DNA of 64,000 bases from an uncultured delta proteobacterium (GCA_963804165.1 CAWDPO010000043.1:371750-435749); one strand, 5' to 3'. Positions 3,231 to 17,455 are shown, numbered from the stretch's first letter. The notes: a model not told the origin generated them from the sequence alone. Program-made: numbers and translations.

Positions 3231-3272
3231 CTCCGATCGCATCCGCAATTCTAACCAAGCCTCCCCACATCC

Positions 3273-4565
3273 GTGAGCACGAACACCCTGCGCAACCGCC
3301 TTTCCGGCCTCTACTACGGCTGGCGCATGATCGGTCTTGTTTCCGCGTTGCGCGTGCTCGGCGGCGGCTTGCATCAATACGGTTTTACGGTTTTCTTTCT
3401 GCCCGTCACCCAAGACCTCGGTCTCACCCGCGCCTCCACTTCTTTGGCGTTTTCCTTGGCGCGCGCCGAAGGCTCGCTCGCTGCGCCCATCGTCGGCTAC
3501 CTGATCGACCGCTACGGCCCTAGACCGATGATGTTCACGGCCGCGCTGCTCGCCGGCATCGGCTACATCCTGTTTTCTTTCGTGAACAGCTACGCGACCT
3601 TTCTCATCGTTTATCTCGGCGTCATCTCGCTCGCCTTCACCGCCGGTTTCGTTCACGCGCCCACGGTTATCGCCAACAGTTGGTTCATTCGTCTGCGCGC
3701 CCGCGCGATGACCGTCGTCAGCGCCGCAGTGCCGGTCGGCGGCGCGCTGATCACACCGCTTCTAGGGATCGCAGTCCATACATTCGGGTGGCGCTGGGCG
3801 GCGTTTTTCGCCGGTGTGCTGTTTCTGGTAGCCGGCCTGCCGCTGTGCATCGGAATAAAGCGATCTCCGGAAAGCATCGGCATGGCGGCCGACGGCGTGC
3901 CGCTCCGAAATGAGAGGATCGAAGGTGCAGAGGAAAAAACTTCGACCAATCAAGAGCCCGAAATCACGGCGCGCGAAGCATTTCGCTCGCCGATCTTCTG
4001 GAATCTGATCTGCTCAATGACCTGCCGCTCGGTCGCGTTCACGACGGTCACGACTCATTTCATTCCGATGATGGTTTGGAAAGGCGTAAGCCAGACCGAA
4101 GCGTCGGTGCTGCTCGCCGGATTTGCGCTCATCAATTTGCCGATTCACTTTCTACTCGGCTGGATCGCTGATTTCGTTAACAAGCCCAAGCTGGTCACCA
4201 TCTGCCTGTTCTTAGGTGTCGTCGCCGTCTTACCGATGTTATGGAGCAACTCCCTTTGGGCGTTGTGGTTCTTTACCGGACTCTACAGCGTGCTCGATGC
4301 ATCGATCCCGGTTTTTTGGGCTTCGGTAGGAGACTTCTTCGGCCGCAAATCCTTCGGCGCGATCCGCGGCAACATGAATTTATTCTACACCTGGGGAGCC
4401 ATCTTGGGTCCGTTTGTCGCCGGCGCGATTTACGATCAGACCCAAAGCTACGCACTAGTGTTCAGCGGCATTACCGTATCGCTCCTCATCTCCACCGCCA
4501 TGACGGCGCTCTTGATCAAGCCGTGGGCGAAGCTTGGAACGATCGCTCAGACGCCAATCCACTAA
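3273..4565 (+). CDS. MFS transporter
   Basis: 430 aa, about 12 hydrophobic segments, motif A GYLIDRYGPR. Confidence 0.9.
   Translation: MSTNTLRNRLSGLYYGWRMIGLVSALRVLGGGLHQYGFTVFFLPVTQDLGLTRASTSLAFSLARAEGSLAAPIVGYLIDRYGPRPMMFTAALLAGIGYILFSFVNSYATFLIVYLGVISLAFTAGFVHAPTVIANSWFIRLRARAMTVVSAAVPVGGALITPLLGIAVHTFGWRWAAFFAGVLFLVAGLPLCIGIKRSPESIGMAADGVPLRNERIEGAEEKTSTNQEPEITAREAFRSPIFWNLICSMTCRSVAFTTVTTHFIPMMVWKGVSQTEASVLLAGFALINLPIHFLLGWIADFVNKPKLVTICLFLGVVAVLPMLWSNSLWALWFFTGLYSVLDASIPVFWASVGDFFGRKSFGAIRGNMNLFYTWGAILGPFVAGAIYDQTQSYALVFSGITVSLLISTAMTALLIKPWAKLGTIAQTPIH
4302..4414 (+). repeat. 113-bp MFS segment duplicated at 6388-6500
   Basis: Manual alignment gives about 8 mismatches in 113 nt, nearly all synonymous. 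Confidence 0.9.
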
Positions 4566-4635
4566 AGCCATTCGCTAGATTGATAAGGTTCTTATATTAG
4601 ACCCTGACAGCGATTAAGGGTTACGGTCAAGTCTT

Positions 4636-4735
4636 TATACGCTATCGCGTGTAGAATACGTTTATACGCTATACAGGATAACTAATATAATACGCTATAA
4701 AGTATATTGACAAAATATACGCCATAAAGTATATC
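4636..4735 (+). promoter_or_regulatory. hipBA promoter with four HipB-type operators
   Basis: TATAC-N8-GTATA-like sites at 4636, 4663, 4689 and 4716 (26-27 bp period); TTGACA at 4707-4712; analogous to E. coli TATCC-N8-GGATA operators. Confidence 0.8.
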
Positions 4736-4755
4736 TAAATCAGGAGTCAATCTTT

Positions 4756-5004
4756 ATGGAGCAGATCGCTAGAACCTCAAAGCAGATCGGAGCCGCTATT
4801 CGCCGGTGTCGCCGTGCCGCTGGTCTGTCTCAAGCCCAGCTTGGAGCCAAAACCAATTTGCGCCAAGCAACAATATCAGCCCTTGAGCACGGCGAGCCGG
4901 GCACCGAGCTGCGAACCCTCACGGATGCGATGACTGCGCTCGGCCTTGAAATGGTCGTCCGCGAGCGTTCGAAAGCACCAGCTGCCATCGAGGATCTGTT
5001 CTGA
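4756..5004 (+). CDS. hipB: HipB-family Xre HTH antitoxin
   Basis: 82-aa HTH (LSQAQLG...RQATISALE); stop overlaps the hipA start. Confidence 0.9.
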   Translation: MEQIARTSKQIGAAIRRCRRAAGLSQAQLGAKTNLRQATISALEHGEPGTELRTLTDAMTALGLEMVVRERSKAPAAIEDLF

Positions 5005-6329
5005 TGGCCCGTCGGCGAACCCGCATTCCTCTGAACGTCTATTTGAACTCGCGCCTCGTGGGGCAGCTGCGACGCCAGGCAAGCGGTGCGATTGAATTCC
5101 AGTACGACCCAAGCTGGCTGTCGTGGGAGAACGCCTTTCCGATTTCGCTCTCCCTGCCGATGCGAGAGGATCGATACACAGGCGATCCGGTGATCGCCGT
5201 CTTTGAGAATCTTCTTCCTGACAGCGACGCCATACGGCGCCGTCTGGCTGAGCGGGTCCACGCAGACAGCTCCGATGCTTATGGACTTCTTGCCAAGATC
5301 GGCCGCGACTGCGTCGGCGCGCTCCAGCTCCTACCCGATAGCGTTGAGCCCGGACCTGCAGGAACGGTAGCAGGTCGGCTTGTCGACGAGGAATATGTCG
5401 CCCGCAAGATCGGCGATCTCACCGCCACGCCTCTCGGCGTCGACGAAGATGAGGAATTCAGAATTTCTCTAGCGGGTGCGCAGGAGAAAACCGCCTTCCT
5501 GTTCTGGAAAAACAAGTGGCATGTGCCGCACGGCACAACACCAACTACGCATATCTTAAAGCCCCAGATCGGCATGTTACCGAACGGCATCGATCTCACA
5601 CACAGCGTCGCGAATGAATATCTCTGCCTGAAGCTCACAGAGGCATTCGGTCTGCACAGCGCAAAGATTGCGATTGCGGATTTCAAAGACAACCATGTTC
5701 TTGTCGTTGAGCGCTTCGACCGGCGCTGGACAGCGGACAACCGCCTGCTGCGATTGCCGCAGGAAGATTGTTGCCAATCTCTTTCGGTGCCGCCGACCCG
5801 TAAATATGAGCCAGACGGCGGTCCCGGAATGGGCGCAATTTTGGAATTGCTCAAGGGAAGTGACGACCCGGAAGCGGACCAGCGATTTTTTCTAAAAGCG
5901 CAAATCGTGTTCTGGCTCCTGGGCGCGACTGACGGCCACGCGAAAAACTTCAGCGTCTTCCTTCAACCTGGCGGTCGCTTTCGTCTTACGCCGCTCTACG
6001 ATGTAATGTCACTCCAGCCCGCCGTTGATGCGGGCCAGCTCCGGAGAAACCAGATGAAGTTTGCCCTCGCGGTCGGCGACAACCGACATTATGTGATCCA
6101 GGAAATCATGCCGCGGCACTTCGTCCAGACGGCGGCAAAGAATGGCATTCCCGCATCCGTCGTTCAGACGATCTTCGACGAACTTCTCCAAGCTGAGGAG
6201 GCCGCCATAAGCAAAGTCATGAGCGATCTGCCGGCCGGATTTCCAGAGGACCTTGTTCGGAGCATCGAGAGAGGCATTCGCACGCGCTTGCGGTTAGCGG
6301 AAGGCACCCATGCAATCGCCTCACGGTAG
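5004..6329 (+). CDS. hipA: HipA-family Ser/Thr kinase toxin
   Basis: RISLAGAQEK, THILKP, VERFDR, ATDGHAKNFS and LTPLYDV motifs all intact. Confidence 0.95.
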   Translation: MARRRTRIPLNVYLNSRLVGQLRRQASGAIEFQYDPSWLSWENAFPISLSLPMREDRYTGDPVIAVFENLLPDSDAIRRRLAERVHADSSDAYGLLAKIGRDCVGALQLLPDSVEPGPAGTVAGRLVDEEYVARKIGDLTATPLGVDEDEEFRISLAGAQEKTAFLFWKNKWHVPHGTTPTTHILKPQIGMLPNGIDLTHSVANEYLCLKLTEAFGLHSAKIAIADFKDNHVLVVERFDRRWTADNRLLRLPQEDCCQSLSVPPTRKYEPDGGPGMGAILELLKGSDDPEADQRFFLKAQIVFWLLGATDGHAKNFSVFLQPGGRFRLTPLYDVMSLQPAVDAGQLRRNQMKFALAVGDNRHYVIQEIMPRHFVQTAAKNGIPASVVQTIFDELLQAEEAAISKVMSDLPAGFPEDLVRSIERGIRTRLRLAEGTHAIASR

Positions 6330-6387
6330 CGCCTACCCTCCACTTGCAAGTATCACCGGATGCTCAGGCGAATCTGGTTATTGGTTG

Positions 6388-6500
6388 TCGATCCCGGTTT
6401 TTTGGGCTTCGGTTGGAGACTTCTTCGGCCGCAAATCCTTCGGCACGATCCGCGGCAACATGAATCTCTTCTACACCTGGGGCGCGATCCTTGGTCCGTT
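6388..6500 (+). pseudogene. Duplicated internal fragment of the upstream MFS gene
   Basis: Encodes SIPVFWASVGDFFGRKSFGTIRGNMNLFYTWGAILGPF, matching 4302-4414. Confidence 0.85.
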
Positions 6501-6548
6501 CGCTTTGAATCTCGAACTGACTCTTTGATTTTCTTCCTAGATCTCGCG

Positions 6549-6983
6549 TCAATAGCTAAAAGCGGACTTGACCCCCCTTTCTGCTGCCCTTGGGAACCGC
6601 TCCGGGATGACAGTTTGGCGCGTTACGCGGCTGAGTGGCGCGACCAAACCGTCGAGCACTGCGAGAATTACGATGTGCCAGAATGCTACGAGCTTGGTTG
6701 CGACAAGACATCCATACGACAAGGCCAGCACTCCCTGGAAAAGGTATACGCCGATCAGGACTCTCTTACGATCGACGCGATCAGCAACAGCGCCAAATAT
6801 CGGCGCCAATAGAACCCGTGAAGGCCCCTTGCAAAACGCCACCAATCCCAAGAGAAACGGCGAGCCGGTCATGACAAACACAAGCCAATCCTCCGCCACC
6901 TCTTGCATGTCTTCGCCAAGGCGGGTGACCATAGATCCGGTGAAGAACACACGGTAGTCGCGATGTGTTAGCGCGTTGCTCAT
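6549..6983 (-). pseudogene. Truncated MFS transporter (N-terminal third; same family as 18549 and 21176)
   Basis: ALTHRDYRVFF and GAVADRVDRK motifs; homology stops near 6585, right at a GGGGGGTCAAG motif. Confidence 0.8.
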
Positions 6984-7247
6984 CGGTGATGAGGAGTCAA
7001 GTTTGTCAGGCCCGGTCGAAGCTGAGGCGTGAACCTGCCCCGAAAGGTCGAGTTGACGCCGCGAAACGGTTTGTACGTTATCGTCGCCTTGCTAAAGGAT
7101 CAAGCCGATCGCGGCATGACCGTGACAGGTCAGAAGCGGGAGGAAGTGAGCTCAGGGAAGCGGCAGCGAAGGGCAGTGCACCCCCAAATCTGCACGCGGT
7201 TCTGCGCACGGCAGGAAAAATCGTGAAGGACCGACGAGTAAATTTTA

Positions 7248-7268
7248 AGAATCAAAAGTCCTGACCCG
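7248..7268 (+). repeat. Junction motif AGAATCAAAAGTCCTGACCCG
   Basis: 17/21 identical to 9258-9278; further TGACCC(C) cores at 6569, 7274, 7379 and 7392. Confidence 0.6.
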
Positions 7269-7454
7269 CACCGTGACCCCAAAGGTCACTTCCATAAACA
7301 AATAAACAAAGCTGACACCTGCGCAGTGCTCACCTGCGCTGTGCTATCAAGACAGTCTACAGTGAAAACCCCCATTGATGACCCTCGTTGATGACCCCGC
7401 CGCGCGAGTTTGCGCATTTTCGAAAATAAACGTTTAATCGAAACGTCTAACTAA

Positions 7455-9200
7455 TTGCCCGAGTTTATGAAGAAGTGGAAAGCTTACGGCGCTTGGATCG
7501 CGTGGACGGTGATGATTATTTGTTATCCTCTCGGAAGCATTCACATTGGTTTAGCCAGTATAGATTTGAAGGGCGCGGATTGGGATCCCGCGGTGACAAG
7601 GTTCTTGAGATCAACGTTTGGTCGTCAACAGGAGAATTTCTTTTGGGGAGTCGCCTTAATTGCTCTCGCTATTCTTGCACAGATCATCGAGCGGTTTTTA
7701 AAACCCCTACCCGAAGACAACCTGGCCTTCGACCCGCGCGGAGGAGGAGTTCAAAAAGGAACACTAGAAGACTTTCTTCAAGAAGTAACCCACTCTGCAA
7801 ACGAAATAGTTAGAGAAGCAACGGACCATTTTGAAGTTGCTTTAAACGAGCTATCTACGGGTGATTTCAAGAATGCAGCAAGGGATTTCTCTCGTTCAGT
7901 GACAATTGTTCCTACTATGTCCGCTTATTTGAATCTCGGTGCCTCTCTATATTTCTGCTCGGAGTGGCTCGAAGCCAAAACTTCCTTTGGCTCGGGATTG
8001 GAGATCGCTCGTAGGCTGAAAGACGAACTCTTTGAGGCAAGATTCATTAACAACTTGGGCTTACTCGAATTACATATGCGCAATCTGGCCGAGGCAGGTC
8101 GACACTTTGAACGAGCCGGTCAGTTGTTTAGGCAGTATGGAAACATGGAAGGGGTCGCCGCCACCTTGGGAAATTTGGGAGACATCGCATATTTGATTGG
8201 CCACTACGGAGAAGCTCACGACTTACAGATGAAAGCGAGAAACAGTTTTAGAAAGATAAACCACCGAACGGGAGAGGCATACGCACAAATAGGTTTAGGC
8301 ACCGTGTTGGCAGCCCAAGGCAAATTGGTCGAGGCACAGTCCTGTTATGATGCGGCTTACAGAATTTTTAAGGCTAGCAATAACCTTATCGGTGTGGCTC
8401 ACGCCTTGGGCAATCAAGCAAGTAATTGGGCAAAAACTGGCGACTTTAGCAAGGCACTAGCGTTACATTATGAGGCATTGAAGTTAGATCGTGATAACGG
8501 GGATCGCGTGGGAGAGGCATTTAATCTACAAAACATTGGATCTGTTAAGTTTCAAACTGGTCAGATAGAAGAAGCTGTAGAACATTACACTACCGCTTTA
8601 AAGATCAACAAGGAGGTAAAAAATCGCTCCGGGGAAGCCGAATGCTTGGGTAATCTGAGCAATATTTACATGGGGCCAGGCAAGTTCAGAGATTTAATAA
8701 AGGCCGAAGAACTACTCCAGAAAACACATGAAATTTATCTCGGAATGGATTATACGGACGCGGCAGCTACAGTCAAGATTAACCTGGGAAACTTGTACTA
8801 TATGAAAGGCGACCTCGAGGAAGCGCGACAAGTCTTAAGAGAAGCACTGGCGCATCAGAAAAAGGTCGGGAACCTAGACGGTCAAGCTTCTGCTCTTGTC
8901 AATTTGGGTCTCGTAGACGCCGCCGAAGGGAGATACGACTCAGCACTAACTCACTACAACGATGCCCTAAAAATTCAAGACACCATTAAAAACAATCTCG
9001 GAAAGGCTATCGTCCTTGGAAATATTGGCAATGTGTTTGCTCGTAAAGGTAATCGAGATGCTGCTTTAAGTTATTTGCGAGCCTCCCTTTCGTTGTATAG
9101 TCAAATGGGAGTGAATGACGAAGGTGTAAAAACAGTCAATCAACTCCTTGCACAGTTGACCAACGAGGCGGATCAAAAACTTCCCAAAAGAGAGTCCTAA
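7455..9200 (+). CDS. Membrane-anchored tetratricopeptide-repeat protein
   Basis: Two N-terminal hydrophobic segments followed by many A..L.NLG..Y TPR units; visibly AT-richer than the flanks; start may be ATG 7467. Confidence 0.85.
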   Translation: MPEFMKKWKAYGAWIAWTVMIICYPLGSIHIGLASIDLKGADWDPAVTRFLRSTFGRQQENFFWGVALIALAILAQIIERFLKPLPEDNLAFDPRGGGVQKGTLEDFLQEVTHSANEIVREATDHFEVALNELSTGDFKNAARDFSRSVTIVPTMSAYLNLGASLYFCSEWLEAKTSFGSGLEIARRLKDELFEARFINNLGLLELHMRNLAEAGRHFERAGQLFRQYGNMEGVAATLGNLGDIAYLIGHYGEAHDLQMKARNSFRKINHRTGEAYAQIGLGTVLAAQGKLVEAQSCYDAAYRIFKASNNLIGVAHALGNQASNWAKTGDFSKALALHYEALKLDRDNGDRVGEAFNLQNIGSVKFQTGQIEEAVEHYTTALKINKEVKNRSGEAECLGNLSNIYMGPGKFRDLIKAEELLQKTHEIYLGMDYTDAAATVKINLGNLYYMKGDLEEARQVLREALAHQKKVGNLDGQASALVNLGLVDAAEGRYDSALTHYNDALKIQDTIKNNLGKAIVLGNIGNVFARKGNRDAALSYLRASLSLYSQMGVNDEGVKTVNQLLAQLTNEADQKLPKRES

Positions 9201-9257
9201 GCACGCTCAAGAAATCGTACAGCCCTTTCTCCAGCGAGAGTGGACCTACAATAGACA

Positions 9258-9278
9258 AGAACCAAGAGTCCTAACCCC
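9258..9278 (+). repeat. Junction motif AGAACCAAGAGTCCTAACCCC
   Basis: Direct repeat of 7248-7268, bracketing the TPR gene. Confidence 0.6.
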
Positions 9279-9287
9279 GTCCTCTGT

Positions 9288-9410
9288 GCTGCACCTCAAG
9301 TACGGTGCTGGCTACGTTGATCAAGAAGAATGAAGAACGTTACCGTGACCGGCTCTTGCGAAACCTAAAGCGGCGTGCGGCCGAACTCGGCTTCCAGGTC
9401 AAGGCCGCTC
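9288..9410 (+). mobile_element. IS110-family transposase C-terminal remnant
   Basis: Translates to LKYGAGYVDQ...EERYRDRLLRNLKRRAAELGFQV, the typical tail of IS110 transposases; disrupted. Confidence 0.6.
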
Positions 9411-9435
9411 GGGGTCAGGCCTGAATCTGGATTCT
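9411..9435 (-). repeat. Junction motif AGAATCCAGATTCAGGCCTGACCCC
   Basis: Related copies at 10950-10974 and 13884-13908 on the same strand. Confidence 0.75.
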
Positions 9436-9448
9436 AAATTTGGACATC

Positions 9449-9611
9449 TTAGGAAAGCACTTTCCCGAGCACCCTCATCATGTTGCCGCCCAGGATTTTG
9501 CCGATGCTTTCGTCCGAATAGTTTCGTCCGCTGAGCTCGACATGCAAGTTTTCCCTGTCGAGGAGTTTGGCGCCGATACCGTCGCGCCGGTAGATTCGAT
9601 CCTCGCTCCAG
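9449..9611 (-). pseudogene. Dipeptidase 3'-end copy 3
   Basis: WSEDRIYRRDGIGAKLLDRENL..ELSGRNYSDESIGKILGGNMMRVL matches the tail of the gene at 14792-15770. Confidence 0.9.
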
Positions 9612-9914
9612 TTAAACATCGGACGCTGCGTGCAAGCGGAGGCCGAGCACGCGCACAACCTTGAGTACCGTGGAGAACTCCGGGTTGCCGTCCGGTGATA
9701 GCGCTTTGTAAAGGCTCTCTCGGCCCAGACCCGTTTCGCGGGCAATCTGGCTCATACCCTTGGCACGCGCGATGTCGCCCAGTGCCGCGGCGATGAGTGC
9801 AGGGTCACCGTCTTCGAGAGCGGCTTCCAAGTACGCCGCCATGTCGCCTTCCGTGGTCAAATGCTCGGCTGGGTCCCACGGTCGAGTTTTTATCTTTGCA
9901 GTCTTCCTTTTCAT
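9612..9914 (-). CDS. Addiction-module antidote protein (HI1420-like HTH antitoxin), copy 1
   Basis: WDPAEHL...AAYLEAALE...ALGDIARAKGMSQIARETGLGRESLYKALSPDGNPEFSTVLKV. Confidence 0.92.
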   Translation of the reverse strand: MKRKTAKIKTRPWDPAEHLTTEGDMAAYLEAALEDGDPALIAAALGDIARAKGMSQIARETGLGRESLYKALSPDGNPEFSTVLKVVRVLGLRLHAASDV

Positions 9915-9922
9915 AACAACCT

Positions 9923-10161
9923 CTACTGTTCTCGTGCTAATTCCAAAGCTTTCTTTATGTCCCGATCCTGCGTTCGCTTGTCACCGCCGGCAAGCAAGAT
10001 GATCAGCATCGGACCGCGTTGCACAAAATAATTGGTCTTACATCCCCCGGATTACCAAGCGACAATCGATGGATACGCACATCGATTCGCGCCCGCGCTT
10101 TCCGATCACGCAAACTGTCGAACCAGTCGGCGTAAGTTTCGGTTTGGCGGATTTCGATCAC
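9923..10161 (-). pseudogene. Addiction-module killer protein (HI1419-like RelE/ParE toxin) with an internal deletion
   Basis: Manual translation gives MIEIRQTETYADWFDSLRDRKARARIDVRIHRLSLGNPGDVRPI / YFVQRGPMLIILLAGGDKRTQDRDIKKALELAREQ*; the usual central G..VSELRIDYGPGYRV segment is missing and the frame shifts. Confidence 0.85.
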
Positions 10162-10169
10162 TGAGGCAG

Positions 10170-10198
10170 AGTGTATTTTATAAGATACAATCAGTCAA
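10170..10198 (-). promoter_or_regulatory. Sigma70-type promoter and operator of the TA locus
   Basis: TTGACT-17 nt-TACACT, overlapped by the palindrome TGTAT-N8-ATACA (10172-10189); GTG start 8 nt downstream, so near-leaderless. Confidence 0.65.
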
Positions 10199-10258
10199 GC
10201 GCCGGCTAAATAGCCAACGGGGAGAAAACTTTTCCACAGTTAATTGAGGAAACTCGAT

Positions 10259-10493
10259 CTAGCGAAGCACTCTCCCGAGCACACGCATCATGTTGCCGCC
10301 GAGTATTTTACCCATGCTCTCTTCCGAGTAATTCCGTCCACTGAGCTCAGCCGCCAGATTTTCCCGGGCGAGTAGCTTGGCGCCGATGCCGTCGCGTCGG
10401 TAGATGCGATCCTCGCTCCAGTCGCGCTTCTCGAATTCGGCGGCGAACGACGGCAAGTACGGAGCGATGCGCTTGGTGTCTTTGTACGAGCGG
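10259..10493 (-). pseudogene. Dipeptidase 3'-end copy 2 (longest)
   Basis: RSYKDTKRIAPYLPSFAAEFEKRDWSEDRIYRR...GGNMMRVLGRVLR*; shares the downstream GATCGAGTTT flank with the main gene. Confidence 0.9.
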
Positions 10494-10500
10494 CGTCAGA

Positions 10501-10590
10501 TCAATGATGCGCAGGATCGAGAAACGGTGCTGTCCGATCGCTCACGTAGAAGATCACGACGCACAAGGGTTCGCTGCTGACGCCCACGCG
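10501..10590 (-). pseudogene. Possible cupin-protein C-terminal remnant
   Basis: Translates to SSEPLCVVIFYVSDRTAPFLDPAHH*, resembling cupin C-termini. Confidence 0.35.
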
Positions 10591-10616
10591 CACCGCCATG
10601 CCCACCAGTGCCCATG

Positions 10617-10961
10617 TTATGTCCTCTTGCGCCCGAGCTGATTTCGGCCGTTACGATCTGCATCGTCAACACGCCTCAGCGAGCAGACACCCTTATTGAT
10701 ACCCATCTCGATGATCGTTTTAACTTCGGCCGGCGAGTTTTTCGCGCAGTAATACCCGCTTAAAATTCTTCCGTCTTTGGCAATCATTCGTATTGGCATG
10801 CCGTCGTATCTCTCGGCGTAGACCCTGCACCTGGTAGCGTTGGGCAAGCCTTGCCGAGTTAAAATTTTGAGATTCTCACAGACTGCACCGGATTTACTGA
10901 AACAACAGGCGCCGCATCGATTACACTCGCCGGTTAACAGAGCAACGACGGGGTTAGGCAT
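10617..10961 (-). CDS. Small CxxCxxCC cysteine-cluster protein (YkgJ-like, putative Zn/Fe-S binding)
   Basis: ECNRCGACC...CENL...CRVYAERY...C motifs. Confidence 0.6.
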   Translation of the reverse strand: MPNPVVALLTGECNRCGACCFSKSGAVCENLKILTRQGLPNATRCRVYAERYDGMPIRMIAKDGRILSGYYCAKNSPAEVKTIIEMGINKGVCSLRRVDDADRNGRNQLGRKRT

Positions 10962-11003
10962 GAGTCTGGATTCTAAGATTGGTCACCTTCGGAAAGCACT
11001 TCC
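10950..11003 (-). repeat. Junction motif AGAATCCAGACTCATGCCTAACCCC with a degenerate dipeptidase stop region
   Basis: GGCATGAGTCTGGATTCTA is identical to 13891-13909; GGAAAGCACTT matches 9452-9462. Confidence 0.7.
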
Positions 11004-11077
11004 TAACGGGATGCCGTGGAATCGCGGCCTGCTCTTTCAGGACCTCTGCGGAGACGAGTCTGGTGAAACGGAAATTC

Positions 11078-12511
11078 TTACGGCGTGCCGACTTTTCGCC
11101 TGAGATATTGCCCCGGCGAGGCATCCGTGACCTTGGCGCGAGGAGCGCCCTCGGGCCATTCCATGACGATCTGGCCGCGGACGACGGTCATGACCGGCCA
11201 ACCCGTGACATCCCAGCCCTCGTAAACTGACCAAGGGGTTACAGTGTGTAGAAGCTCTTTGGTGATCGTTGCGCGCCGTTTTAGATCGACGACGATCAAA
11301 TCGGCGTCGGCGCCGGGAAGAATCGCGCCCTTTTTTGGATAAAGGCCGAAGATGCGCGCGGGGTTTTCACTTGCGACTTGGGCCAACCGTTGGATCGAGA
11401 TTCGTCCTTTGTTCACACCCTCGCTCAACATCATCGGCAGCATGCCTTCGACGCGCGATGGAAAACCGCTGATTGTGGTAAAGACGTTCCCCGTTTCCAT
11501 GGACTCGCGGGTTCTTGTATGCGCGACGTGATCGCTGCCGATGCAATCGATGGCGCCCGACGAAAGCGCATTCCATAGCGCTTCATGCGTGGAGCGGTCG
11601 CGCAGCGGCACGTTGATCTTCCAAGCATCTTTGTGCAGGACGAGATAGTGAGTGCCGATTTCGCTGTAGACCGTCAAGCCTTCGGCTTTGGCTTTCTCGA
11701 TTTCCGTAACGGTATCCGTCGTCGTGCAGTGCACTATGTAAATCGGACAGCGGGCGATGCGGGCGTAGTAAAGGTATGTTCGGGCGTGGCCGACCTCGGT
11801 GAAAGCCGGCGAGCGATCGTCCCACGCGCCCATATCGGTGCGGCCCGCCTCCATGAGCTGTTTCTGCAGCACTTGGGCGATTTCCCAGTTCTCGCAGTGA
11901 AGCAGCGCGATGGCGGGCGCGCCTAGCTTGGCGACTGCCTGGAAGACCGAGTAAATACTGCCGTCGTCGAAAAAGTAAGCCGGCCATGAAGACTTCCACG
12001 GACCTTGCATCTGCAAATGGAGCTTAAAGGAGCTGATGCCGTGCTCTCTCGCCAGATAAGGAATTTCCGTGACTTGCTCGTCAGTGCTGACGATCGGCGT
12101 GAGGAAAAAATCGATGGCCGCGGTTTTCGACGCCTTGTAGAAAATCGGCATCGCCGTGGTGAAATTTGGAATATCCGCCGGTCCCTTCACTTTCTCAGCG
12201 CCGCCGGTGATCGCGAGGCTGACAAGCTGCAAGCCCCATGTCGTCACACCGGCAGCCGCAGCCGCGCGCGTCTCACTTTGAAAATCGGCCGCCAGGTCCC
12301 GGTGGCCGCCCAGGTGGCATTCGGGATCGATGGCGCCGGGCAGAAGATGTTTGCCGGCTAAATCGATGACCCGCTCCGCTTCCGGCAAAAAGGCATCGCT
12401 GCCGACAGCGCCGATCTTGCCGTCGACGACGGCGAGCCCGCCTTCGATGACGCCGGACGGCGTTACGATCAAACCATTCTTGAAAACTATATCCGCGGTA
12501 TTTTTAGCCAT
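11078..12511 (-). CDS. Cyclic amidohydrolase (dihydroorotase/allantoinase/dihydropyrimidinase family)
   Basis: LLPGAID, SFKLH, LHCEN, IYIVH, GSDH, NPARIFGLYPKKGAI.PGADADL. Confidence 0.88.
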   Translation of the reverse strand: MAKNTADIVFKNGLIVTPSGVIEGGLAVVDGKIGAVGSDAFLPEAERVIDLAGKHLLPGAIDPECHLGGHRDLAADFQSETRAAAAAGVTTWGLQLVSLAITGGAEKVKGPADIPNFTTAMPIFYKASKTAAIDFFLTPIVSTDEQVTEIPYLAREHGISSFKLHLQMQGPWKSSWPAYFFDDGSIYSVFQAVAKLGAPAIALLHCENWEIAQVLQKQLMEAGRTDMGAWDDRSPAFTEVGHARTYLYYARIARCPIYIVHCTTTDTVTEIEKAKAEGLTVYSEIGTHYLVLHKDAWKINVPLRDRSTHEALWNALSSGAIDCIGSDHVAHTRTRESMETGNVFTTISGFPSRVEGMLPMMLSEGVNKGRISIQRLAQVASENPARIFGLYPKKGAILPGADADLIVVDLKRRATITKELLHTVTPWSVYEGWDVTGWPVMTVVRGQIVMEWPEGAPRAKVTDASPGQYLRRKVGTP

Positions 12512-12687
12512 GGTTCACTTCGAGAAGAATTCCTTTTCCGAATCAATGACCGATTTTGCCCAGCGCGAGACCAAGTCCTCGGCGAAGGAGCGTTCGTGAA
12601 TCCATTTCTGACTTGGACCCATGATCGCGATTGACGGTGTCGCCTAAGTTGTACGATAGCTCATCGTTCTTCACTTCTAAGTGTTCC

Positions 12688-13683
12688 TTACTTTCTTGCT
12701 TCCTGCAGATAGCTCATATCGATTACTGCGTCGACAGGTGGCGGCAGTTTTTGCAGACCGAACTCCTTCCAGCTCTCAGCGACGATCCGCGCGCCTTTGA
12801 TATCGACCGCGCCATCGCGCGGAATCGATTTTTTGGTTTTAATAAAGAGGTTATAGGTTTTCTCAGCATCGTCATGATCCGCCTTGGCCTTCTCGATCAA
12901 CGCCCGAATCACAGCGTCTTTATTTTTCGGCTCATAAAAGAACTCGCACGCGCGCGCAAAAGCGCGGAGAAATCGCACCGTCAAAGGCCTGTTTGCTTGC
13001 GCCCAGTCGCGGCGCATACCCGTAACGGTATACTGAAAATTGTCGACGTAATCCGAAGAGTAGCCGAGCAAACGCAGCCCCGAGGCGATGGCTTTGAAAT
13101 CCGATGGCTGATTGACCAAGGCCCCGGCGACTCCACCTTTTTCCACAGCCGCCAGGCGAGTTGGAGTTCCGCCGAGTCCGAGCATCTCATAGTCGGCAGG
13201 CGTCAGCCCGTTGGCTGCCAACATCCGCGCCATTATATAGTTGAGCGGATCGGTCGGGCCTGCAACAGCCAGTCGCTTCCCCTTCAAATCGGCATAGCTC
13301 CTGATCGAAGGATGTACGACCAACGCATAAATAGGCACCAGGGTATCGCCGGCCACCGCCACGAGATCGGCTCCTGCCAAGTTTGCGGAGAGTAACTGCA
13401 CCAAATTCATCTGCGCAAAATCCGTGGAGCCAGCGACCAGCGCCTGCGAGGTGGCGGTCGTGGTTCCGCCGAGGACGCGCTTCATCTCGATGCCTTCTTT
13501 TTGCAGCATACCTTCCTGCTCCGCGATCAAATAGGGCCAGTGTAGCGCGGATATCGTAATGGTACCGTAGTTGACTTGTGTGAGTTTTTGTTGGGCGGCA
13601 GCGGGGCTCACCGGCGTCATCAAAACAACCAGGACAAGCCAGGCGCTATGTATAAGAGCCATGCGCATAGGTTTCTTCCTCAT
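12688..13683 (-). CDS. NMT1/SsuA-like ABC substrate-binding protein
   Basis: Signal peptide, YADLKGKRLAV motif. Confidence 0.85.
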   Translation of the reverse strand: MRKKPMRMALIHSAWLVLVVLMTPVSPAAAQQKLTQVNYGTITISALHWPYLIAEQEGMLQKEGIEMKRVLGGTTTATSQALVAGSTDFAQMNLVQLLSANLAGADLVAVAGDTLVPIYALVVHPSIRSYADLKGKRLAVAGPTDPLNYIMARMLAANGLTPADYEMLGLGGTPTRLAAVEKGGVAGALVNQPSDFKAIASGLRLLGYSSDYVDNFQYTVTGMRRDWAQANRPLTVRFLRAFARACEFFYEPKNKDAVIRALIEKAKADHDDAEKTYNLFIKTKKSIPRDGAVDIKGARIVAESWKEFGLQKLPPPVDAVIDMSYLQEARK

Positions 13684-13883
13684 GTCGTGGCGAAATAGAT
13701 TTGACGGACAGACCTGCTAGAGTCGAGCCACTACGTACTATGAGCCCGAAAAAGTGTCAAATTAAAGTGAAGAAAATACGCGGTCGCGCATGGAAGGCTA
13801 AAGCATCTTTTTAGCGAAGATCGGAGAGAGGCTTGGATTTGGCTCAACGGTCCAAGGCCAGCGTCGAGTCTGCGAGGCCGGTC

Positions 13884-13908
13884 GGCGTCAGGCATGAGTC
13901 TGGATTCT
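13884..13908 (-). repeat. Junction motif AGAATCCAGACTCATGCCTGACGCC
   Basis: Follows dipeptidase tail copy 1, in the same position as at 9411. Confidence 0.75.
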
Positions 13909-13921
13909 AGGTTTGAACATC

Positions 13922-14090
13922 TTAGTAAACCACTTTCCTGAGCACCCGCATCATATTGCCGCCGAGTATTTTGCCGATGCTTTCTTCGCGAATAATTTCG
14001 TCCGGTGAGCTCGGCCGCGAGGTTTTTCCGGTCGAGTAACTTGGCGCCGATGCCGTCGCGCCGGTAGATGCGATCCGTTCCAGTCGCGCT
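13922..14090 (-). pseudogene. Dipeptidase 3'-end copy 1
   Basis: DRIYRRDGIGAKLLDRKNLAAELTGRNYS / EESIGKILGGNMMRVLRKVVY*, with small indels. Confidence 0.9.
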
Positions 14091-14111
14091 TCCCATGGAA
14101 CGAACCCGTGA

Positions 14112-14414
14112 TTAAGCATCGGCCACTGCGTGCAAGCGGAGGCCGAGCGCGCGCACGACTTTGAGCACCGTGGAGAACTCCGGGTTGCCGTCCGGTGATA
14201 GCGCTTTGTAAAGGCTCTGTCGGCCTAGACCCGTTTCGCGGGCAATCTGGCTCATACCCTTGGCACGCGCGATATCGCCCAATGCCGCGACGATGAGTGC
14301 CGGGTCGCCGTCTTCGAGCGCGGCTTCCAAGTACGCCGCCATGTCGCCTTCCGTGGTCAAATGCTCGGCTGGGTCCCACGGTCGAGTTTTTATCTTTGCG
14401 GTCTTCTTTCGCAT
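14112..14414 (-). CDS. Addiction-module antidote protein (HI1420-like), copy 2
   Basis: 100 aa, near-identical to 9612..9914. Confidence 0.92.
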   Translation of the reverse strand: MRKKTAKIKTRPWDPAEHLTTEGDMAAYLEAALEDGDPALIVAALGDIARAKGMSQIARETGLGRQSLYKALSPDGNPEFSTVLKVVRALGLRLHAVADA

Positions 14415-14423
14415 TACATATTT

Positions 14424-14651
14424 TCATGGAACCAAGAAGTCCAGCCAAGACCAGCGATGAGGTCGCCAGAGGCCGAAAAGAAAGCCGATGGCTGCTCCCA
14501 ACAAGCCACCGGGACGAACATTCTCTAATCCGAAATCTGAACCGACCACAAGCATAATGACATAGAAAGCGAGCATCCCCCCCAATCCGCCGACAATCAA
14601 ACCCACAAGCGCGGTCAGCAAACGATGAACAAAGGAGGGGAATGCGTTCAC
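14424..14651 (-). CDS. Small two-TM membrane protein in the toxin position
   Basis: 75-aa Gly-rich hydrophobic ORF with an AGGA RBS; ends 9 nt before the antitoxin. Confidence 0.6.
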   Translation of the reverse strand: MNAFPSFVHRLLTALVGLIVGGLGGMLAFYVIMLVVGSDFGLENVRPGGLLGAAIGFLFGLWRPHRWSWLDFLVP

Positions 14652-14791
14652 AACTATCCTTATTGGTGAACCGCCGTGATTGCCGGCAGCTAAATTTGAA
14701 ACTCATCAACCGCTACGAGCAAAATCAGGCGCACTATCAGTCCAGTCGCTGGTTATTGTCAATCGTCTCCTGAGCTGCTGGAAAACTCGAT

Positions 14792-15770
14792 CTAGTGAAC
14801 CACTTTCCTAAGCACCCGCATCATGTTGCCACCAAGGATTTTGCCGATGTTTTCAGCCGAATAGTTTCGTGCAGTGAGCTCGGCCTGCCAGGTTTTCACG
14901 AATCGAGTAGCTTGGCGCCGATGCCGTCGCGCCGGTAGATTCGATCCTCACTCCAGTCACGTTTTGAAACTCGGCGGCGAACGACGGCAAGTATGGCGCG
15001 ATGCGCTTGGTGTCCTTGTACGACCGGTGCCAATCGTCCTGGGCCGAGACGCCGACGTGATCGATGCCGGCGAGTTTGACGCAGTAGTCGATCCAATCGG
15101 CATACTCCGCGACGCTCGTGTTGGCGCGCACGTCCTGGCAAATCACTCCGCCTTTTTTTGCCGCCGCGACGATCAACGGATCGGGCGCGTTGCGCGGCCG
15201 GTTGAACAATGCCCGGCTGGTGGAATGACTGAAGATCACCGGCTGCTCGGAAAATTCGAGCGCTTCCATCGCCGTGCGGTCGCCGGAGTGCGACAAGTCG
15301 ATGACGATGCCAAGCTGGTTCATGCGCTTGATGGCTTTCTTGCCGAGGGAAGTCAGGCCGGTGTCGACTTCGGAGGCATAGCCGCAGCCGTAATAGCTGT
15401 TCTCGTTGAAAGCGAGGGCGAGACAGCGCAGGCCGAGATCGAAGAACGCATCCAACAAGCGCAGGCTATCGTCCAACGGTTTGGGATTTTGCAGCCCGAG
15501 CAGCACGCCGACTTTGCCTCGATTCTCTTCACGATCCAGATCGGCGGCGCTCCGCACAATGTAAGCATGCGGATGATCGCGCACGATCGATTTGACGGCC
15601 TCGAAGTTTTCGATGCTTTCGAGAGTATCGTCCCAGGTGAGATTGGCGGTGCAGCCGACGATGGCGACGCCTTGCTCGCGCAGTTGATCGAGAAACGACG
15701 GCGAGAGATCTTCCGGCCAGGGCGCGCCCAGGCAGTTGACGATGGTTTGCTGTGACGTAACTGTATTCAT
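14792..15770 (-). CDS. Membrane dipeptidase (peptidase M19) family protein; three indels in the 3' part (14885-14965)
   Basis: GLTSLGKKAIKRMNQLGIVIDLSH, IFSHS...RNAPD, GIDHVG, KILGGNMMRV; true stop inferred at 14792 from the duplicated tails. Confidence 0.85.
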
Positions 15771-15916
15771 ATCCCCTCCAGATTTCGAGCGAGCGTCCTT
15801 CCGACGCCTAAAGGAATTTCACACCGCTTGCAAGTTAGTAAAATCCTCCCTCGAAAATGGGTGAGCGTGAGACTCATAGAATAAAGAACCCGGAATACGT
15901 TAGTAACTGCAGCTTC

Positions 15917-15993
15917 CGTCATACCGCGAAAGCGGGTATCCAGGCTGATTGGGCGGAAAACCAACATGGATTCCGGCCTTCGCCGGTATGACA
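15917..15993. repeat. REP-like palindrome pair (GTCATACCG...CCGGTATGAC)
   Basis: CGTCATACCGCGAAAGCGGGTATCCA ... TGGATTCCGGCCTTCGCCGGTATGAC. Confidence 0.65.
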
Positions 15994-16095
15994 AAAGTCA
16001 CTTCCCCCAACGCGAGGGATTTCAACCGAAAGCCGCTAAGGCGACGCCTACTGAAAATAATAATTTCTTGCAAGCGTCAGATGCTGATTGATAGC

Positions 16096-16256
16096 AGATC
16101 CTTCACTTGGTGGGCTGTGCCAGAATGTCATTCTGAGTCGAAGCCGAAGAATCTGCTTTTTTCGGTAAGCGGTCGGAAAATCAGATGCTTCGCTTTGGCT
16201 CAGCATGACATCCAGGTGATTTGTCCTTACGACACCAATCTGTCGTTCAGGATGAC
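16096..16256. repeat. Nested REP-like cluster
   Basis: Inner pair TGTCATTCTGAG...CTCAGCATGACA (16126-16210) lies inside a split AGATCCTTCACT...CGTTCAGGATGAC unit. Confidence 0.55.
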
Positions 16257-16373
16257 GACTCGAATGAAGTGCTACTTTTTAGGACCCGGCGCGGATCCGC
16301 TAAATGAATCACGACCAGGGGTTCGAAGTCTCAGAGCAAATCTTTGACTTGGTTTGATCGCGTGTGATAACCC

Positions 16374-17455
16374 GTGGCCATGGCAAAATCATCTCTAAAA
16401 TTCACCGGCGAGGTCGGCATCCACTACCCGCTGCACGTTCTTAACCGCTATTCCCTTCCGGAGCTCATCGACCTGGCTGAGCGCGCGTTGAAGATTTTGG
16501 GGCCGTTCAATTTTACCCGGGTCTGGACCAACGACAATCTCGAGTATCGCAGCGTTTTGGCAAGCTCCGCGGCGATCTTGGCTCGTTTACCGGTGAAACT
16601 CGGCACGGCGGTCGCCGTCCCCTACTTTCGCAATCCGGTTGACGTCGCCATGGCCTTTGCCACCATGTCCGAGCTCGCGGGCGGGCGAGACATTTCTCTC
16701 GGCTTGGGTCCCGGTTCCAGATCGATTCTCACGCGGCACGTGGTGCGGACGAAACCCATGGCCATCATGGCCGAATTGGCCGTCGCGCTGCGCACGCTCT
16801 TCGCCGGCGAGACTCTGAATACCAGCGATATTCCGGTTTTGGCGGAATATTTTCACTTGAATGCGGAACATTATGCGTTGCGCTTCAAAACCCGGCGCCG
16901 ATCCATCTCTACTACGGCCCAAGCCTGCTCAAGCCCGCCGTGCTCGATTTGATCGCGCGCCACTTCGACGGCGTGGTGCTGCAAACTTTATACGGCATCG
17001 ACGATATGGAAGCTTCGCTCGCGCGTCTCGACTCAGCGCGCTTGCAGTCCGGCGTGGGGCAACCGCTGCGCAAAACGATGCTCGTCAACGCTTCCGTATC
17101 GCACGACAGCCATGCGGCAAAACAACACGCGAAACGGTTCGTGTCGCACATCGCTTCGGGTTGGCCGGACGACGTGCTCGCCGCGAAAGGTATCGATCCG
17201 AAAGCGATTCAAGCGGTCCGTCAAGCCTACGCCGAGAACCGGGGCGTGGATTACGCTTCCGCGCTGACACCCGACGAGGCGGTGGACCGGCTGATTATCT
17301 CAGGCACTCCGGAAGAATGTATCGGCCGGCTTCGGAACCTTTTTCAACTTGCTGCGCGCCATGGCTTCGGCGAGATCACTATCGGAGTTCCCCTCGGGCC
17401 CGACGTCCCCGAGGCCATAGATCTTTGGGGAAAAGAAATATTGCCGGCAATTTAG
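16374..17455 (+). CDS. LLM-class flavin/F420-dependent oxidoreductase (Mer-like); one indel near 16895
   Basis: KLGTAVAVPYFRNP, ELAGGRDISLGLGPG and ISGTPEECIGRL motifs across ORFs 16374..16952 and 16940..17455. Confidence 0.8.

Follow-up and report, generated by a model that had tools for sequence, protein, structure and literature searches.

The DNA analysed here (the window) is a 64,000-nucleotide (nt) stretch from the genome of an uncultured delta proteobacterium (GCA_963804165.1, CAWDPO010000043.1:371750-435749). Between 4.56 and 14.8 kb it holds a hypervariable islet, set between convergent MFS transporter and Peptidase_M19 genes, in which short repeats ending in a CCCC core recur among unrelated genes. 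The initial annotation had taken these repeats for the junctions of a cassette array without an integrase. We consider it very probable that they are instead solo (gene-less) terminal inverted repeats (TIRs) of TIRtrons, lying in a hypervariable site and belonging to three subfamilies, A, B and G. The features of the islet are collected in Table 1.

Table 1. Features of the islet and its borders, in window coordinates. TIR rows follow the assignment favoured in the text.
Feature	Position	Strand	Basis or remark
MFS transporter gene, conserved left islet border	3273-4565	+	Pfam MFS_1; synteny
hipB-hipA toxin-antitoxin pair	4756-6329	+	Pfam
Predicted solo TIR, family B	6539-6575	+	Ends ...AGCGGACTTGACCCC; no Y1 gene inside
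MFS_3 scrap, N-terminal 144 codons and upstream region	6588-7113	-	Pfam; 93% to intact gene in genome G017
Predicted solo TIR, family G	7247-7268	+	Reads K N Q K S stop
TPR-repeat gene	7455-9200	+	Low-GC (45-48%) segment between two family-G TIRs
Predicted solo TIR, family G	9257-9278	+	Reads K N Q E S stop; core TAACCCC
Short scrap, part of a longer conserved sequence	9295-9396	+	Between two facing TIR termini
Predicted solo TIR, family A	9411-9435	-	Reads R I Q I Q A stop
Peptidase_M19 3' tail, copy (a)	9455-9612	-	PF01244 profile positions 288-318 of 319; 83-85% to other tails
HI1420-type antitoxin gene	9612-9914	-	PF21716, TIGR02684
Frameshifted RelE/ParE-type toxin remnant	10003-10161	-	TIGR02683 profile positions 2-43 of 95
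Peptidase_M19 3' tail, copy (b)	10250-10493	-	Without TIR; resident-allele type
Predicted solo TIR, family A	10950-10974	-	Core TAACCCC; adjoins last ~26 nt of M19 tail
Dihydropyrimidinase-like amidohydrolase gene, same operon as next	11078-12511	-	Pfam
NMT1-type solute-binding protein gene, two-gene operon	12688-13683	-	Pfam
Predicted solo TIR, family A	13884-13908	-	Core TGACGCC; 13 nt beyond stop codon of M19 tail copy (c)
Peptidase_M19 3' tail, copy (c)	13923-14092	-	Similarity to other tails
Second antitoxin copy	14112-14414		94% identical to 9612-9914
Resident Peptidase_M19 dipeptidase gene, conserved right islet border	14792-15770	-	Pfam 9.8e-56; synteny

The repeats in the window are real and non-random. 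The pattern AGAATCCAGAYTCAKGCCTRACSCC was found at 9411-9435, 10950-10974 and 13884-13908, each time on the minus strand, as against 0.00 occurrences expected from 100 shuffles. The pattern AAGAAYCAARAGTCCTRACCC was found on the plus strand at 7247-7267 and 9257-9277, with 0.01 expected from shuffles. The family-B unit matches an end of an element elsewhere in the genome (C46:405838-406809; C numbers denote contigs), and an alignment of 6530-6583 with the end of this TIRtron at C46:405786 extended over 54 nt at 89% identity (blastn). No Y1 similarity was detected within 1.3 kb of the unit. The termini GGGGTCAG at 9411 and 6575 and GGGGTTAG at 10950 and 9278 fit the consensus GGGGWSAS, while GGCGTCAG at 13884 and CGGGTCAG at 7268 deviate from it by one base.

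The annotation had not seen the extended motif in the other 48 kb, and indeed no further copy of families A, B or G was found on the rest of the window's contig. In the genome, 7 of 10 matches with up to four mismatches lay outside the window, on other contigs. Its view that similarity between copies stops at the CCCC core also generally holds. Tails beyond the core agreed at 8 or more of 9 positions in 7 of 299 within-family and 14 of 976 between-family pairs, a difference that was not significant; the minus-strand copies share ~8 nt past the core. A weak copy proposed at 4603, CCTGACAGC, matches nothing and was treated as chance.

Parent elements for these ends were sought in the whole assembly (7.5 Mb, 46 contigs, 81% complete). 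It contains 18 matches to PF01797 (Y1 transposase), most of them open frames of ~315 amino acids (aa). Most of the frames of this size are bracketed by inverted repeats of ~26-34 nt ending in CTGACCC(C/T), one repeat lying 38-63 nt upstream of the start codon and the other at or over the stop codon. About 12 of the Y1 elements carry GGGGTCAG-type ends. The ends of one, C6:99647-100597, belong to family A, and its protein terminates in RKIQAQA. The motif in the window reads RIQIQA-stop followed by CCCC, and is thus the last seven codons of a C6-like gene plus the terminus. For family G, a pattern search among species-representative genomes returned 19 stretches, in record titles labelled as metagenome-assembled genomes of Candidatus Binatia, Pyrinomonadaceae, Verrucomicrobiia and others. 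A Y1 homologue lay directly beside 9 of the 19, and in these nine loci the family-G sequence formed the 3' end of the Y1 gene or its inverted upstream end. The link to Y1 HUH genes suggested in the initial annotation is therefore supported by the elements of this genome, including the C6 element with its family-A ends, and by the family-G loci elsewhere.

The predicted proteins are 274-323 aa long. In all five full-length proteins PF01797 was accompanied by a C-terminal PF08299 domain (Bac_DnaA_C, the helix-turn-helix (HTH) of DnaA domain IV), with E values of 1.6e-9 to 2.1e-6, three of the five falling below the Pfam cut-off. The motifs NHxHLL, with the HUH histidines, and RYxHxNP, with the tyrosine, were invariant in the same five. 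The proteins also matched NF047646 (REP-associated tyrosine transposase), mostly below its cut-off, and NF033573, far below its cut-off. Multi-copy elements are 95-98% identical in protein sequence and have empty sites in relatives, which argues for mobility of TIRtrons. A TIRtron is a ~1-kb unit in which a RAYT-like Y1 HUH nuclease, fused to a DnaA-domain-IV-like HTH, lies between inverted repeats each ending in GGGGTCAG or CTGACCCC.

This architecture has been described. Di Nocera, De Gregorio and Rocco (2013, BMC Genomics 14:522, PMC3733652) present RAYT-like genes flanked by inverted repeats fitting GGGGWSAS as TIRtrons, their products being TIRYTs. They record that some TIRs overlap the 3' end of the gene, and that 'moderately abundant families of TIRs' are present one by one, as dimers or in groups. 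Quentin et al. (2018, PMC6006769) place TIRtrons in TnpA-Y1 subclass 2.1 (subgroup 2.1.2), with Bac_DnaA_C or HTH tails and no hairpins of the REP (repetitive extragenic palindromic) type. A full-text literature search for 'TIRYT' returned the name from these two papers only, the accessible portions of which report no biochemical test of a TIRYT. The annotation had given as background that ends of this kind flank some RAYT-related Y1 HUH genes; this was correct, and the genes meant correspond to the published class.

The elements of this genome share with that class the Y1 HUH gene between GGGGWSAS repeats, the downstream TIR over the 3' end of the gene, the C-terminal Bac_DnaA_C-type HTH, the lack of REP hairpins and the presence of gene-less TIRs, single, paired or grouped. 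We see no difference in kind. What stands out here is the number of subfamilies (~12 elements and ~40 ends), the dense cluster of three subfamilies in a hypervariable islet, and frequent tandem duplications at the termini. What looked like a new cassette system is thus resolved into a known class of elements.

Other systems with HUH chemistry are less similar. REP/RAYT systems (REPtrons, REPINs) also pair a related Y1 nuclease with its own short flanking repeat, which is likewise dispersed without the gene. However, the repeats in the window are not hairpins, folding no better than shuffled sequence (z -1.1 to +1.4, 8 folds of window units), and lack a GTAG or CGTC tag; their copy number is in the tens and not in the hundreds, and the enzyme here has an extra HTH domain. 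IS200/IS605 elements (IS608, ISDra2) and IS91/ISCR provide precedents for end-specific single-strand cleavage, and IS91/ISCR also for one-ended capture of flanking DNA. IS200/IS605 elements, however, have their own subterminal hairpins, lack inverted repeats and encode a TnpA of ~130-150 aa, compared with inverted repeats and proteins of 274-323 aa here, and IS91/ISCR enzymes have two tyrosines. A DnaA-like HTH is found in neither group.

To survey such ends over the genome, 12 seed ends were scanned against 14,488 T[GA]AC[CAG]C sites, giving 43 TIR-like ends, of which 40 matched at 15 or more of 20 positions. Thirteen of the 40 belong to intact TIRtrons, three lie beside Y1 fragments, and 24 have no Y1 similarity within 1.3 kb on the inner side. 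Solo copies of the window's family, whether from this genome or from relatives, begin at the identical inner base although their surroundings are unrelated. This common boundary indicates discrete ~26-nt units and not remnants of random deletion. Within the same taxonomic family, 12 of 36 other genomes contained copies of this TIR family, as against 0 of 24 from two sister families, and the reversed-pattern control gave 0 everywhere; two unpublished genomes, G005 and G035, are included in these tallies. Among 11 loci from relatives, a Y1 homologue was nearby in three (one being G005) and none was seen in eight (one being G035).

TIRYT enzymes such as that of C6:99647-100597 may act in trans to generate or mobilise solo TIRs, and the HTH domain may read repeated TGACCC boxes. 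With ~12 elements of several subfamilies and matching solo ends, the genome offers natural enzyme-substrate pairs. No simple empty site was found for the solo TIR on C33, the outer flank of which is a gene truncated relative to genomes G025 and G019, and none was found for the C1 element, because its right flank is itself repetitive. That flank is the repeat L004:3129-3277 (~150 nt), which, like L004:811-889 (~80 nt) on the same contig, is dispersed in many copies across the genus. Another mixed-subfamily cluster occurs at C17:79395-79866, where a 244-nt tandem duplication holds a family-B solo TIR, with a family-A solo TIR 400 nt further. Facing termini around a gene fragment (CCCC, fragment, GGGG) were observed at C17:2762-3259, around a C-terminal fragment of SRAP, and in the window at 9278-9410, around the 9295-9396 scrap.

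Within the window, the minus-strand copies are not independent of one another. Each runs inward into the 3' tail of a Peptidase_M19 gene, the similar stretch measuring 53 to ~240 nt at 82-88% identity. The inner edge of the 9411-9435 TIR is 13 nt beyond the stop codon of tail copy (a), the same spacing as at copy (c), and 9402-9918 and 13875-14418 have 544 nt in common, including the HI1420-type antitoxin gene. By blastn, the only M19 tails in the genome were the four local copies, including the resident gene, at 82-86% identity. The allele type of the TIR-linked tails differs from that of the resident M19, which suggests that they arrived with imported DNA. A single ancestral arrangement, with a TIR 13 nt past an M19 stop codon, was very probably copied together with the gene tail to give all three minus-strand junctions. 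Of the proposed motif at abrupt junctions, the repetition itself is therefore sound, while the minus-strand copies do not count as separate junctions.

The spacing of 13 nt at two tails could also be expected of a host regulatory element, a terminator or operator downstream of M19-type genes. We regard this reading as effectively refuted and its probability as close to nil. The motif flanks Y1 genes elsewhere, M19 orthologues in congeners lack it, the units fold no better than shuffled sequence, as noted above, and a search of 4000-16000 against Rfam gave no match at E up to 1.

The site itself varies whether or not TIRs are present. In congeners the counterparts of window 3257-4540 (MFS) and ~14790-15755 (M19) are neighbours, 3' end to 3' end. 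The gap between them may be short, ~47 nt (G002), 250 nt (G021), 282 nt (G003) or 389 nt (G004), or long, 1 kb (G007), 1.8 kb (G019), 4.3 kb (G014), 17 kb (G027) or 28 kb (G018). In ten such gaps examined, no convincing TIR end was found. A range of 47 nt to 28 kb without TIRs indicates that the islet site varies in their absence.

These observations bear directly on the initial annotation's proposal that the motif is a polar cut-and-join site for a trans-acting Y1 HUH nuclease, which builds an integron-like array of cargo plus TIR with no integrase and no attC sites. The arrangement does invite it: TIRs stand in series in one orientation (+ + +, then - - -) with unrelated DNA between them, and a candidate trans enzyme with the same TIR family exists in the C6 element. 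We nevertheless judge the proposal highly unlikely, as the three minus-strand copies are paralogous, each with its M19 tail, the cargo includes pseudogene scraps and a two-gene operon instead of single promoterless cassettes, and the MFS-M19 hotspot is variable in congeners without TIRs. The best case for a unit of cargo plus TIR is the compositionally foreign TPR gene between same-orientation TIRs of one subfamily. This sole test gave no other copy: none of 60 other genomes of the family contained the TPR segment with its two TIRs, and blastn with 4000-16500 as query (E ≤ 1e-6) detected no second copy in the genome, its matches outside the window being short and limited to the MFS gene, the family-B TIR and the region of a Cys-rich open reading frame (ORF).

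The expected association of the motif with toxin-antitoxin (TA) or defence genes also failed to appear, as none was present among 49 ORFs in four other TIR clusters of the genome. Integron arrays share with the islet short repeats of one orientation between unrelated genes, and the presence of TA modules. They differ in that the cargo here includes scraps, an operon and TA pairs and the repeats are transposon ends; a Pfam scan of 17 ORFs in 3.2-15.8 kb revealed no integrase (IntI tyrosine recombinase), and there was no attC-type folded site among the 8 folds of window units. Circular or empty-site joints at TIR termini were not seen in the public contigs, the coverage of which is thin and leaves 7208-9212 almost uncovered. 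Gene-less TIRtron ends can thus mimic cassette boundaries in variable regions.

The junctions would be artefacts if paralogous M19 loci had been collapsed or wrongly joined during assembly. With 82-86% identity among them, the four M19 tails might confuse an assembler, several genes in the assembly are split (M19, UPF0261 and MoCoBD), and no public run contained more than 15% of the sampled words. On the other hand, the contig is 436 kb long, and its synteny with congeners holds at both borders of the islet. The 10950-10974 junction is bridged with 0 mismatches by a 343-nt contig of run X2, although X2 may be the source sample, and TIRs of these families recur at many further loci and in further genomes. 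We think a chimera very unlikely. The split genes are the resident M19, with two reading-frame changes in its last ~200 nt (14792-15030), a UPF0261 gene at L002:1226-2451 and a MoCoBD gene at L009:2592-4176; they reflect either real decay or indel errors of the assembly.

Several points weigh against the assignment of the window motifs to solo TIRtron ends, or at least against its being the whole account. The window contains no Y1 gene, so that the link to an enzyme runs through the TIR family only, and for family G no parent TIRtron was found in this 81%-complete assembly. Contig support from outside the assembly covers one of the six TIR junctions, that at 10950-10974. At least three to four independent acquisitions, of three subfamilies, fall within ~3 kb, far above the genome average of 40 ends in 7.5 Mb, a density that a permissive hotspot does not fully explain. 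Finally, truncated genes whose other part is missing locally were found at 7 of the 12 termini examined in detail, a count without a control. This may be a sign that the termini are involved in rearrangements instead of being passengers only. The seven comprise the MFS_3 scrap, cut ~14 nt outside the family-B terminus, the 9295-9396 scrap (two termini), SRAP, GST_C, a copy of gene X (C6) and gene Y (C33).

A second line of evidence comes from the sequence just outside the termini. Perfect 13/13 tandem duplications with a period of 14-20 nt, starting from the terminal TGACCC, were present at 8 of 40 TIR ends, as against 16 of 2579 other TGACCC sites (0.6%). The duplicated unit comprises the terminal TGACCC(C) and ~8-12 nt of flank, in two to three or more tandem repeats. 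Examples are C17:4223, C1:180987, C6:99649, C33:37884, where the array is ~140 nt long, and C17:79866; others are visible in relatives and in other phyla. In the window they occur at 7262-7285 and 7379-7400. The bare TGACCC cores that the initial annotation had placed at 7274, 7379 and 7392, after the 7247-7268 TIR, do exist, at 7274 and within 7379-7400, and fit such terminal duplications, common at TIR ends. At the C6 element, relatives provide empty sites, and GGGTCA is absent at the breakpoint from the intact copy of the gene that the element interrupts; the extra TGACCC boxes were therefore added at the end of the element. The text of Di Nocera et al. (2013) contains neither the string 'duplicat' nor 'target site'.

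Taken together, the terminal duplications and truncated genes suggest DNA breakage and joining at TIR termini and point to where TIRYT may cut; they also suggest repeated TGACCC boxes as the sequence that its DnaA-like domain reads. It is possible, and we propose it tentatively, that TIR termini are active breakpoints, with TIRYT nicking at or near TGACCCC followed by adjacent deletions, terminal duplications and joins to foreign DNA. The TIRs would then have helped to shape the islet without any cassette system, which is compatible with their identification as solo TIRtron ends. Besides the uncontrolled count of truncated genes, this proposal must contend with the fact that insertion into a gene followed by an unrelated deletion would leave the same picture, and that local partial duplicates, at 11 of 40 TIR ends and 49 of 400 random positions, are not clearly more frequent at TIRs.

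Three related ideas were tried and rejected. An enrichment of gene-tail duplicates beside TIRs, drawn from these last counts, became unclear once the element-to-element matches of C34 and four non-independent window ends were removed. TGACCC as a native target did not survive the lack of GGGTCA in the intact gene copy at C6, the one clean breakpoint; downstream of M19, TAACCCC is present in G003 and absent from G004, G019 and G021. Targeting of TIR termini by IS110-family elements had been considered from a flank similarity between the window and genome G031, where the flank is the upstream region of a solute-binding protein gene, but the similarity is limited to ~25 nt and contains a degenerate second core; none of the genome's IS110 copies abuts a TIR. 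One IS110-family type (427-aa transposase; C12:~28485, C26:~32014 and C18:~58016) has an internal GGGGTCAG-containing stretch ~170 nt 5' of the gene, which resembles a TIRtron TIR.

A fuller mechanism, which we rate as unlikely on present data, would have TIRYT nick the TGACCCC terminus of full and solo TIRs alike. Limited strand-displacement synthesis and rejoining would then produce the tandem duplications at the termini, and adjacent deletions and joins to unrelated DNA would also result, making solo TIRs rearrangement hotspots that helped to assemble the islet, with the unit of flank plus TIR occasionally copied. If true, HUH enzymes would drive a one-ended form of gene shuffling that differs from integrons as well as from IS91/ISCR.

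The content of the islet is a patchwork of imported and locally duplicated DNA, made up of two TA modules, a foreign TPR gene, the operon of solute-binding protein and amidohydrolase, and gene scraps. After the hipBA pair, 113 nt at 6388-6500 duplicate MFS positions 4302-4414 (93%), and in G005 hipBA also lies after the MFS tail. An 18-nt unit (ATACGCTATAAAGTATAT-like) is present in at least three direct copies, spaced by 26-27 nt, just 5' of hipB (4630-4740); these are probably HipB operator repeats. The TPR gene is foreign by composition.

The 9295-9396 sequence is indeed a scrap, as contigs of runs X2 and X3 extend past both of its ends. The label 'IS110 scrap' fared less well, and the sequence is possibly the C-terminus of an IS110-family transposase. 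A tblastn search against plasmids gave E values of 0.03-0.8, with 3 of 12 among the matches listed falling under IS110 annotations, and comparison with the genome's own IS110 proteins gave no match better than E 1.6. The Cys-rich ORF has its ATG inside the 10950-10974 TIR. Its region 10674-10886 has an 83% homologue at C2:265312-265524 that is divided into two neighbouring parts facing opposite ways, a sign that one locus or the other underwent a small inversion. A further repeat of ~136 nt, at L001:521-656 (C6:98120-98255), is unrelated to the TIRs; further copies (82-83% identity) lie on at least seven other contigs and also in many congeners, and it may be similar to a miniature inverted-repeat transposable element.

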